Part shown: positions 8,095-8,405 of the stretch, in pieces
Position numbering within the stretch: the first letter of the stretch is position 1
Layout: every line of letters begins with the position of its first letter
Made by a program: the position numbers and the translations under genes
The notes under the pieces: model-generated
Database searches by the model: none
The model's input: the letters and a program-made list of their open reading frames with translations, nothing else
What the model was told of the DNA's origin: nothing
Source of the DNA: a virus
Taxonomy: Duplodnaviria > Heunggongvirae > Uroviricota > Caudoviricetes
Virus record (IMG/VR): IMGVR_UViG_2859788636_000004
Length of the DNA stretch: 21,627 nucleotides
Reading direction: 5' to 3' (one strand)

Positions 8095-8169
8095 TGGAGC
8101 GGGCAGCGGGAATCGAACCCGCATCATCAGCTTGGAAGGCTGAGGTAATAGCCATTATACGATGCCCGC
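8095..8169 (-). tRNA. tRNA-Gly (anticodon UCC)
   Basis: Reverse complement GCGGGCATCGTATAATGGCTATTACCTCAGCCTTCCAAGCTGATGATGCGGGTTCGATTCCCGCTGCCCGCTCCA folds as a cloverleaf with encoded CCA; matches my recollection of E. coli glyT. Confidence 0.85.
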
Positions 8170-8172
8170 ATA

Positions 8173-8248
8173 TGGTGCCGACTACCGGAATCGAACTGGT
8201 GACCTACTGATTACAAGTCAGTTGCTCTGCCTGCTGAGCTAAGTCGGC
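8173..8248 (-). tRNA. tRNA-Thr (anticodon UGU)
   Basis: Reverse complement GCCGACTTAGCTCAGCAGGCAGAGCAACTGACTTGTAATCAGTAGGTCACCAGTTCGATTCCGGTAGTCGGCACCA; anticodon loop CTTGTAA; resembles E. coli thrU with two D-loop differences (from memory). Confidence 0.8.
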
Positions 8249-8250
8249 GC

Positions 8251-8327
8251 TGGCCCACCACCGAGGACTCGAACCTCGCACCGTCAACTTAGAAGGTTGA
8301 TGCTCTATCCGGATGAGCTAGTGGTGG
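8251..8327 (-). tRNA. tRNA-Arg (anticodon UCU), atypical C1:G72 acceptor pair
   Basis: Reverse complement CCACCACTAGCTCATCCGGATAGAGCATCAACCTTCTAAGTTGACGGTGCGAGGTTCGAGTCCTCGGTGGTGGGCCA; all four stems pair; anticodon loop CTTCTAA. Confidence 0.7.
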
Positions 8328-8328
8328 T

Positions 8329-8405
8329 TGGTGGCCCTTGCTGGACTTGAACCAGCGACCTGGCGATTATGAGTCGCTCGCTCTGACCAACTGAGCTAAA
8401 GGGCC
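8329..8405 (-). tRNA. tRNA with anticodon CAU, tRNA-Ile2 (lysidine)-like; Met cannot be excluded
   Basis: Reverse complement GGCCCTTTAGCTCAGTTGGTCAGAGCGAGCGACTCATAATCGCCAGGTCGCTGGTTCAAGTCCAGCAAGGGCCACCA; anticodon stem-loop GCGACTCATAATCGC and T-arm resemble E. coli ileX/ileY. Confidence 0.75.

Follow-up and report, generated by a model that had tools for sequence, protein, structure and literature searches.

The window analysed here is a 21,627-nt stretch of DNA from a Caudoviricetes record of IMG/VR (IMGVR_UViG_2859788636_000004), and its central feature is an array of four closely packed tRNA genes at positions 8095-8405. Across the whole window ARAGORN called these four tRNA genes only. 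They lie on the minus strand, and the array is read from 8405 towards 8095. In this direction it consists of a tRNA of the Ile2 type with a CAU anticodon (8329-8405), a tRNA-Arg UCU reading AGA and AGG (8251-8327), a tRNA-Thr UGU reading ACA (8173-8248) and a tRNA-Gly UCC reading GGA and GGG (8095-8169). All four genes belong to the Rfam tRNA family RF00005, with scores of 70.5, 56.4, 69.8 and 64.9 bits, respectively, against a gathering score of 29, and with E-values of at most 6e-10. A CCA is encoded at the 3' end of each gene, and the spacers between the genes are A (8328), GC (8250-8249) and TAT (8172-8170), i.e. 1, 2 and 3 nt. An initial annotation, made from the sequence alone, had given the same four anticodons, array boundaries and spacers, with no strand stated, and ARAGORN, Rfam and reading of the sequence reproduced it exactly. 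Single-tRNA minimum free energy (MFE) folds, which returned no cloverleaf for the Ile2-type and Thr genes, were set aside, and the covariance model and ARAGORN were followed instead, since the MFE of an unmodified sequence is a poor test of a tRNA. The idea that spacers of 1-3 nt are tighter than any in the host was also dropped as wrong: in Escherichia coli K-12, valT-lysW and valZ-lysY are separated by 2 and 3 nt with CCA encoded (11 further K-12 tRNA spacers examined measured 6-116 nt), so the tight spacing of the array is neither exotic nor special to phages.

The identity of each tRNA was assessed by alignment to the tRNA genes of K-12 and of the Shiga toxin (Stx) 2 phage Nil2 (AJ413274). 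The tRNA-Gly is K-12 glyT at 75/75 positions, and the tRNA-Thr matches thrU at 74/76 (97%), both changes lying in the D-loop; the resemblance to glyT and thrU that the initial annotation had noticed is real, and the host arrangement thrU-tyrU-glyT-thrT is, as it stated, absent. The CAU tRNA is 96% identical to ileZ of Nil2, 92% to ileY and 90% to ileX, compared with 69% to the elongator (metT/metU) and 62% to the initiator (metV) tRNA-Met. Its acceptor stem, GGCCCTT/AAGGGCC, is that of ileY, with the pairs C4-G69 and C5-G68, which are determinants used by TilS, and identical copies are labelled tRNA-Ile by PGAP. Its body is that of the Ile2-type tRNA-Ile (ileX/ileY) and not that of a tRNA-Met. 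Judged by these alignments, the CAU gene is a tRNA-Ile2, not a tRNA-Met, and would read AUA after the predicted lysidine modification. In this tRNA and in the ileZ of Stx phages A27 faces C43, instead of the G27-U43 wobble of ileX and ileY; an A-C replacing a G-U pair is often regarded as isosteric, and A27/C43 offers an allele-specific probe site.

The tRNA-Arg UCU, in which A20, C35 and U36 can be read, is 73% identical to argU and begins with a C1-G72 pair. With this pair and an identity of only 73%, the gene is no copy of argU. It is 83-86% identical to tRNAs with UCG or UUU anticodons that fill the second slot of such arrays in other prophages, and by this likeness it is a member of a phage tRNA lineage. 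Comparison of the slot-2 genes (window 8251-8327, L017 1401-1477, L018 2657-2733, L003 3248-3324 and IMG/VR loci L023-L227) placed them in one lineage, with C1-G72 and 83-86% identity, in which the anticodon is UCU, UCG or UUU, rarely UAA, CAG or UGA, and which includes internally deleted remnants. In none of the four window tRNAs does the anticodon loop differ from that of the host isoacceptor (ileX/ileY, argU, thrU and glyT).

Upstream of the array, a consensus scan identified a candidate sigma-70 promoter at 8415-8444 (minus strand, 9/12 matches), with a -35 element TTTGCA (or TTGCAG) at 8444-8439, an 18-nt spacer and a -10 element TATTAT at 8420-8415, which is followed by 9 nt before the first tRNA base. 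The initial annotation had also placed a candidate promoter here. The -10 and most of the -35 are kept where the upstream regions of related arrays have otherwise diverged, but the consensus match is at chance level, as the scan found 4 sites where 3.5 were expected. Upstream of the arrays of Nil2, phage PhiR47_1 and a mouse E. coli prophage, TTATTAT is invariant and TTGCA is kept; in these and in the window the motif TTGCA(A/G)-17 nt-TATTAT, followed by 9 nt, stands in otherwise diverged surroundings. The best promoter-like hit of the scan, TCGGCA-16-TATAAT at 8181-8154, was rejected because it lies inside the array, with, as its -10, a TATAAT that belongs to the D-arm of glyT and that the host gene shares.

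Further upstream, RNA folding identified an intrinsic-terminator hairpin at 8494-8522 (minus strand), with a CCCGC/GCGGG core and a U7 tract, at -22 kcal/mol and with a z-score of -6.7 (0/200 shuffles fold as well). It separates the array from the preceding gene and is kept in the prophage of strain VL40 and in CFSAN029787. In VL40, terminator-like hairpins also lie between the array and the holin gene, and the upstream terminator and these downstream hairpins fit an array that forms an independent small transcription unit. The initial annotation had described the array as lying directly after the first late gene of the prophage, which does not hold on either count: the gene is an antirepressor-like ORF6N gene behind an isrK/C4 RNA module, truncated by the insertion sequence (IS) IS600, and the strong hairpin stands between it and the array.

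The place of the array in phage genomes is seen best in its relatives. The closest E. coli match was the VL40 prophage (99.7% identity), in which the ORF6N gene and the array are followed by holin, lysozyme RrrD and Rz; beyond these lie genes for terminase, head and tail, and the last is ipaHd, at the opposite end of the prophage. In CFSAN029787 the array directly follows a DUF1133 gene and occupies the same slot before holin, lysozyme and Rz; in the sequenced phage PhiR47_1 it lies between Q and holin S, and in the IMG/VR locus L172 directly after a canonical Phage_antitermQ gene. The same slot is occupied in a mouse commensal E. coli and in E. coli EPSSH018. The intact relatives show the array in the slot of a lambdoid tRNA module, between Q or the late promoter and the lysis genes; of this setting the window has only the upstream Q-like gene. 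Phage genes of the Q, lysis or tail regions flanked the array in every relative examined.

To the 5,426 complete E. coli genomes we applied a 111-nt probe across the Ile2-Arg-Thr junctions. It matched in 16 genomes, ten of them at 100%, with 2-5 places per chromosome, and found nothing in K-12. The flanking phage genes and this narrow distribution bear out the initial annotation's suggestion of a mobile array. Three array copies each were found in Shigella flexneri SFBU1023 and in 'E. coli' ECMA0423, again in the slot described above, which in the S. flexneri copies runs from a Q or Q-like gene to holin, lysozyme and Rz.

A family survey was made by exact-pattern scans of IMG/VR for the Thr-TAT-Gly and the Ile2-second-slot junctions, followed by ARAGORN on 205 loci. 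Each of the two junctions was found in more than 120 contigs. Among the 205 listed loci, 55 carried Thr-Gly, 54 Ile2-Lys(UUU)-Thr-Gly, 30 Ile2-Arg(UCU)-Thr-Gly and 6 Ile2-Arg(UCG)-Arg(UCU), the remainder being a scatter of other or damaged slot-2 genes; in the three commonest types the spacers were always 1, 2 and 3 nt. Full identity with the window array, over all of its 311 nt, was seen in at least 25 IMG/VR loci. The array types point to a fusion of two modules that is common, already-sequenced phage cargo. That the TAT spacer is what remained of the thrU and glyT flanks after loss of tyrU was considered but not relied on, a 3-nt match having a chance of about 6%. In the slot-2 Lys UUU allele the anticodon loop is CCUUUAA, with C33, where host lysT has CUUUUAA; U33 is near-universal in tRNAs. 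Its codon AAA is not rare, so the allele may have a different role, e.g. resistance to a tRNA-Lys anticodon nuclease.

Several copies outside the window carry damage. In CFSAN029787 the Gly copy (L002 3001-3072) is decaying: its acceptor stem is 1 nt shorter, it carries A37G, and its UCC has become UAC, for which it is annotated as tRNA-Val. In the Thr copy of VL40 (L015 13803-13878) the anticodon stem has TC in place of GT, and the Thr copies at L012 4173-4246 and L014 6256-6329 have each lost 1 nt of the acceptor stem.

Around the array the window holds an IS-riddled lambdoid remnant. On its upstream side, all on the minus strand, lie genes for a DUF1367 protein (11552-12151), for YbcO (11262-11552) and for a DUF1133 protein (10711-11265; Pfam DUF1133, E = 5e-108), which is a candidate for a Q-like antiterminator: it is 98% identical to the VL40 protein, and its score with Phage_antitermQ, 26.6 bits, barely passes the cut-off of 26. 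Just after this gene begins a transcription unit with an isrK / a1b1 / C4 RNA module (10691-10490, minus strand; Rfam isrK 75.6, C4 77.6 and c4-a1b1 52.2 bits), with a promoter-like site at 10714-10685 (minus strand, 10/12 match) and a terminator-like site of isrK, found by terminator scan, at 10623-10606 (minus strand). Such an antisense-RNA module is P1 immI-like and is known from Gifsy-1 (PMC4825925). The ORF6N-domain gene (8614-9126, minus strand; Pfam ORF6N, E = 5.6e-18) follows, its 5' end truncated by an IS600 copy at 9124-10409; its product is 88% identical to the VL40 ORF6N protein over 172/187 residues. A second isrK / a1b1 / C4 module, overlapping a gene for an Ash/Rha-type regulator (639-1271), was observed at 690-878 on the plus strand, opposite in orientation to the one at 10490-10691 (minus strand). 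Two opposite copies suggest that the window joins parts of more than one prophage or has undergone an inverted rearrangement.

On the downstream side, an N-terminal remnant of a tyrosine integrase, recognised by its translation, lies at 7908-7980 (minus strand). Its gene begins 114 nt beyond the tRNA-Gly 3' end and is cut after ~24 codons by an IS3-family element (6659-7907). Over 187 nt the region shares 99.5% identity with L172, a contig whose array is identical and which has the complete gene of 534 aa (Pfam Phage_integrase; L172 3895-5499), and a homologue holds the same position in EPSSH018 (L003 1341-2957). In the window the remnant stands where intact relatives have lysis genes. The integrase gene looks like part of an integrative element that used the phage glyT copy as its attachment site and displaced the lysis genes; a second tRNA-Gly 3' end, as expected at the distal boundary of an element integrated at the tRNA, was not found in the window, where the element is IS-cut. 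With no lysis, head or tail genes, the window prophage is a remnant without late genes; it is dead, and the array is a surviving module able only to add to the host tRNA pool.

Elsewhere in the window, a sok antitoxin RNA match of 118 bits was observed at 13638-13812 (minus strand), where a hok-type toxin gene is annotated in VL40; sok/hok in the early region of the prophage is a type I toxin-antitoxin pair. A fragment of RecE (exonuclease VIII) lies at 3715-5139, and a 300-nt direct repeat at 1-300 and 12689-12988. IS600 occurs three times (5141-6407, ~9121-10409 and 19906-21191), one copy being inverted, and another IS with open reading frames of 136 and 301 aa occurs twice (1477-2810 and 18144-19482). 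Such a heavy IS load is typical of the chromosomes of Shigella and enteroinvasive E. coli (EIEC). Among the listed IMG/VR loci IS600 was found in 12/33 with the Arg UCU allele and in 0/172 others; in the window, IS600 and the array allele point to Shigella or EIEC.

Codon use was compared with a K-12 sample of 48 genes, in which ATA, AGA, ACA and GGA occur at 2.7, 1.2, 4.9 and 6.7 per 1000 codons, in agreement with the initial annotation, which had called them low-usage codons. Relative to this sample, the late genes of the VL40 prophage are enriched 4.8x for AGA, 4.6x for AGG, 2.5x for ACA and 2.0x each for GGA and ATA, and these five codons take five of the six top enrichment ranks. AGG is also read by a UCU anticodon with a modified U34. 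The VL40 early genes reach 8x for AGA and 4.5x for ATA, and the phage genes remaining in the window 5.2x for ATA, 6.9x for AGA, 2.3x for ACA and 1.6x for GGA, the last being marginal (p = 0.06). The codons cognate to the array are thus rare in the host and commoner in phage genes, and codon supplementation, the function put forward in the initial annotation, is supported as a predicted role by these counts. It cannot operate at the window locus now, where the late genes have been lost. Phage tRNAs have been described before in Stx2 phages (PMC7946995) and downstream of Q in SfI, Sf6, ST64T and P21, with an ACA bias and a codon argument of the same kind (PMC3636060).

Taken together, we consider it likely that the array is a mobile four-gene tRNA operon of lambdoid phages, set in the slot between Q and the lysis genes, composed of two modules and transcribed and processed to supply decoders of rare codons. 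The first module would be the Ile2-like CAU tRNA with a slot-2 tRNA of the phage lineage (here Arg UCU), homologous to the ileZ-led cluster of Stx phages, and the second the Thr UGU-Gly UCC pair, whose sources would be thrU and glyT of the host. A single precursor transcript would start from the array's own conserved sigma-70-type promoter and, in lytic growth, additional transcription could be provided by Q-modified polymerase reading across the upstream terminator. RNase P would cleave at every tRNA 5' end, the 1-3-nt 3' tails left after CCA would be trimmed by exonucleases (RNase T/PH), as for valT-lysW and valZ-lysY, and TilS would convert C34 of the CAU tRNA to lysidine, giving AUA reading. 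The outcome would be more decoders for AUA, AGA/AGG, ACA and GGA/GGG, codons that are host-rare and several-fold commoner in phage genes. We infer this processing route, i.e. a single precursor, RNase P, exonucleases and TilS, from established knowledge.

Several points weigh against this interpretation. The promoter match is weak (9/12) and of chance frequency, and the site would leave a leader of only ~2-4 nt. Codon use in the host is represented by a single K-12 sample of 50 kb, and acquired DNA that is AT-richer is generally rich in rare A-ending codons, so a codon match is partly expected without selection. AAA, at 32 per 1000 in the host sample, is read by the Lys UUU tRNA of the commonest relative, and supplementation does not explain the whole family. 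The damaged copies (the VL40 Thr, the L012 and L014 Thr and the 'Val' of CFSAN029787) indicate that the constraint on each copy is not strong.

At the window locus itself the array could be a neutral relic, a part of a defective prophage that has not yet decayed and has no consequence, which we regard as possible but on balance doubtful. Lysis, head and tail genes are gone, IS600 and the IS3-family element adjoin the array, and other array copies are in early decay; IS expansion in Shigella is recent, so that survival of a 311-nt segment would need no selection. The relic reading is opposed by the state of the array, as all four tRNA genes, the promoter-like region and the upstream terminator are intact and the whole 311 nt recur unchanged in the IMG/VR loci counted above. 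Replacement of host tRNAs cut by anticodon nucleases (PrrC/RloC, colicin D or PARIS-type effectors), a counter-defence role proposed with examples for phage tRNAs in general (PMC10264068), appears very unlikely for these four genes. The sister arrays speak for such a role, with a Lys UUU whose C33 adjoins the position at which tRNA-Lys is known to be cleaved and whose codon AAA is not rare, and this sister allele is a better counter-defence candidate than the tRNAs of the window. Nuclease evasion is expected to appear as anticodon-loop changes relative to the host (PMC10264068), and the window tRNAs have none, their loops equalling those of the host isoacceptors in four of four cases; with Gly 100% and Thr 97% host-identical, they would be cut like the host tRNAs. 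No nuclease is known for the set Ile2, Arg UCU, Thr UGU and Gly UCC. The near or full identity of Thr and Gly to thrU and glyT could also suggest a core chromosomal tRNA operon that merely lies near phage genes, which the initial annotation had named as the finding that would overturn its view. Its distribution refutes this almost beyond doubt: K-12 lacks the array, as do more than 99% of complete E. coli genomes; its neighbours are without exception genes of the Q region and of lysis or the tail; and it occurs in induced, sequenced phages and in several copies per genome at different sites.

A further explanation holds that in Shigella and EIEC multi-copy arrays are retained for the benefit of the host, providing a higher dosage of decoders of AGA/AGG, AUA, ACA and GGA for the very AT-rich type III secretion and effector genes of the invasion plasmid (pINV) and for prophage-borne ipaH genes, and thereby aiding virulence. 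A probe for the conserved part of ipaH matched exactly ten of the 5,426 genomes, which makes these ten the EIEC of the set; they are the same ten that carry the exact array allele in multiple places, S. flexneri SFBU1023 with its three copies being a further case of multiplication. The VL40 prophage that bears the array itself carries ipaHd, beside the tail-fibre genes (L015 40339-42090). In 14 type III secretion and effector genes of the VL40 pINV, AGA (12.4x), ATA (12.1x), AGG (5.7x) and ACA (5.2x) are the four top-enriched codons, GGA is enriched 2.6x, and 9.3% of the codons in these genes are cognate to one of the four tRNAs. pINV genes have been reported to be rich in AGA, AGG, GGA and AUA, and translation of S. 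flexneri virulence proteins to need modification of tRNA-Arg(UCU) and tRNA-Gly(UCC) by MnmE/G (PMC12283395, 2025); that work mentions neither prophages nor argU. A benefit to the host would also explain why arrays survive in gutted remnants such as the window, in which the array is intact while both flanks are IS-destroyed. The association is, however, one of alleles, and hitch-hiking on an ipaH-carrying prophage family explains it equally well; arrays of this composition, but of another allele, occur once per genome in non-invasive E. coli, the mouse strain included, and several of the Shigella/EIEC copies carry damaging mutations. We therefore consider retention for the host rather unlikely. 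Its broader form, that the arrays are a selected part of the Shigella/EIEC pathotype which multiplies decoders that the host would else have in one copy, for AGA/AGG, GGA and ACA, as well as that for AUA, alongside MnmE/G control, draws on correlative evidence and is put forward tentatively, with no greater confidence.

The preferred interpretation, a mobile codon-supplying operon, makes the array an ordinary member of the lambdoid-phage tRNA modules found downstream of Q. Annotations of such arrays, identical or as variants, exist already for E. coli genomes and deposited phages, and the array is in this respect routine phage cargo known to genome pipelines; a literature search, with the S. 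flexneri genome papers outside its scope, found no paper describing this four-gene composition. For annotation, the value of the finding lies in the naming of the CAU gene as Ile2 and not Met, and in the array as a marker of the lambdoid Q-lysis junction. Wider interest rests on the Shigella/EIEC link: if that link were causal, the arrays would be an overlooked, horizontally acquired layer of control over AGA/GGA-dependent virulence proteins, and the distinct Arg and Ile2 sequences make it directly testable.

Among known systems, phage T4 carries eight tRNAs, including Arg UCU, Ile CAU, Thr UGU and Gly UCC, which are likewise closely spaced and are processed from multimeric precursors by RNase P; unlike the source of the array, T4 is a virulent phage, with eight genes and some tRNAs lacking an encoded CCA. 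The K-12 operon thrU-tyrU-glyT-thrT-tufB shares with the array an identical Gly, a 97% identical Thr and encoded CCA ends. The array lacks tyrU, thrT and tufB and has a different promoter region and a phage context, and its gene order is not that of the operon, in which the spacers are 8, 116 and 6 nt and thrU and glyT, with tyrU between them, are 209 nt apart as against 3 nt in the array.

The Ile2-Lys(UUU)-Thr-Gly arrays of PhiR47_1 (PV340566), vB_EcoS-689R5 and the EPSSH018 prophage have the same slots, the same spacers of 1, 2 and 3 nt with Thr-TAT-Gly, and the same place between Q and holin, at ~93% identity over the array. They differ in the slot-2 tRNA, which reads AAA (UUU, C33) and shows ~11 differences, and they are the commoner form (54 vs 30 of the 205 listed loci). 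The ileZ-argN-argO cluster of Stx phages (933W-type; Nil2 AJ413274) holds the position of the array, with Q, pR' and tR' before it and the lysis genes after it, and both serve rare codons. In Nil2 the order is Q, tR', Ile CAU, a 1-nt spacer, a tRNA of the C1-G72 lineage (UCG), a third tRNA (Arg UCU) and stx2. Slot 1 is 96% and slot 2 83% identical to the array, the 1-nt spacer is the same, and the upstream TTGCA...TATTAT is shared, so that the Stx-phage parallel drawn in the initial annotation proves to be true homology, extending to the upstream -10. The slot-2 anticodon is UCG in Nil2 and UCU in the window, and the third Nil2 tRNA, an unrelated Arg UCU (61%), follows after a 13-nt spacer with no Thr or Gly, whereas the window array continues with copies of the host Thr and Gly genes and has no stx genes. 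The homology to the ileZ/argN/argO cluster is accordingly partial, with the first module shared and the second different.

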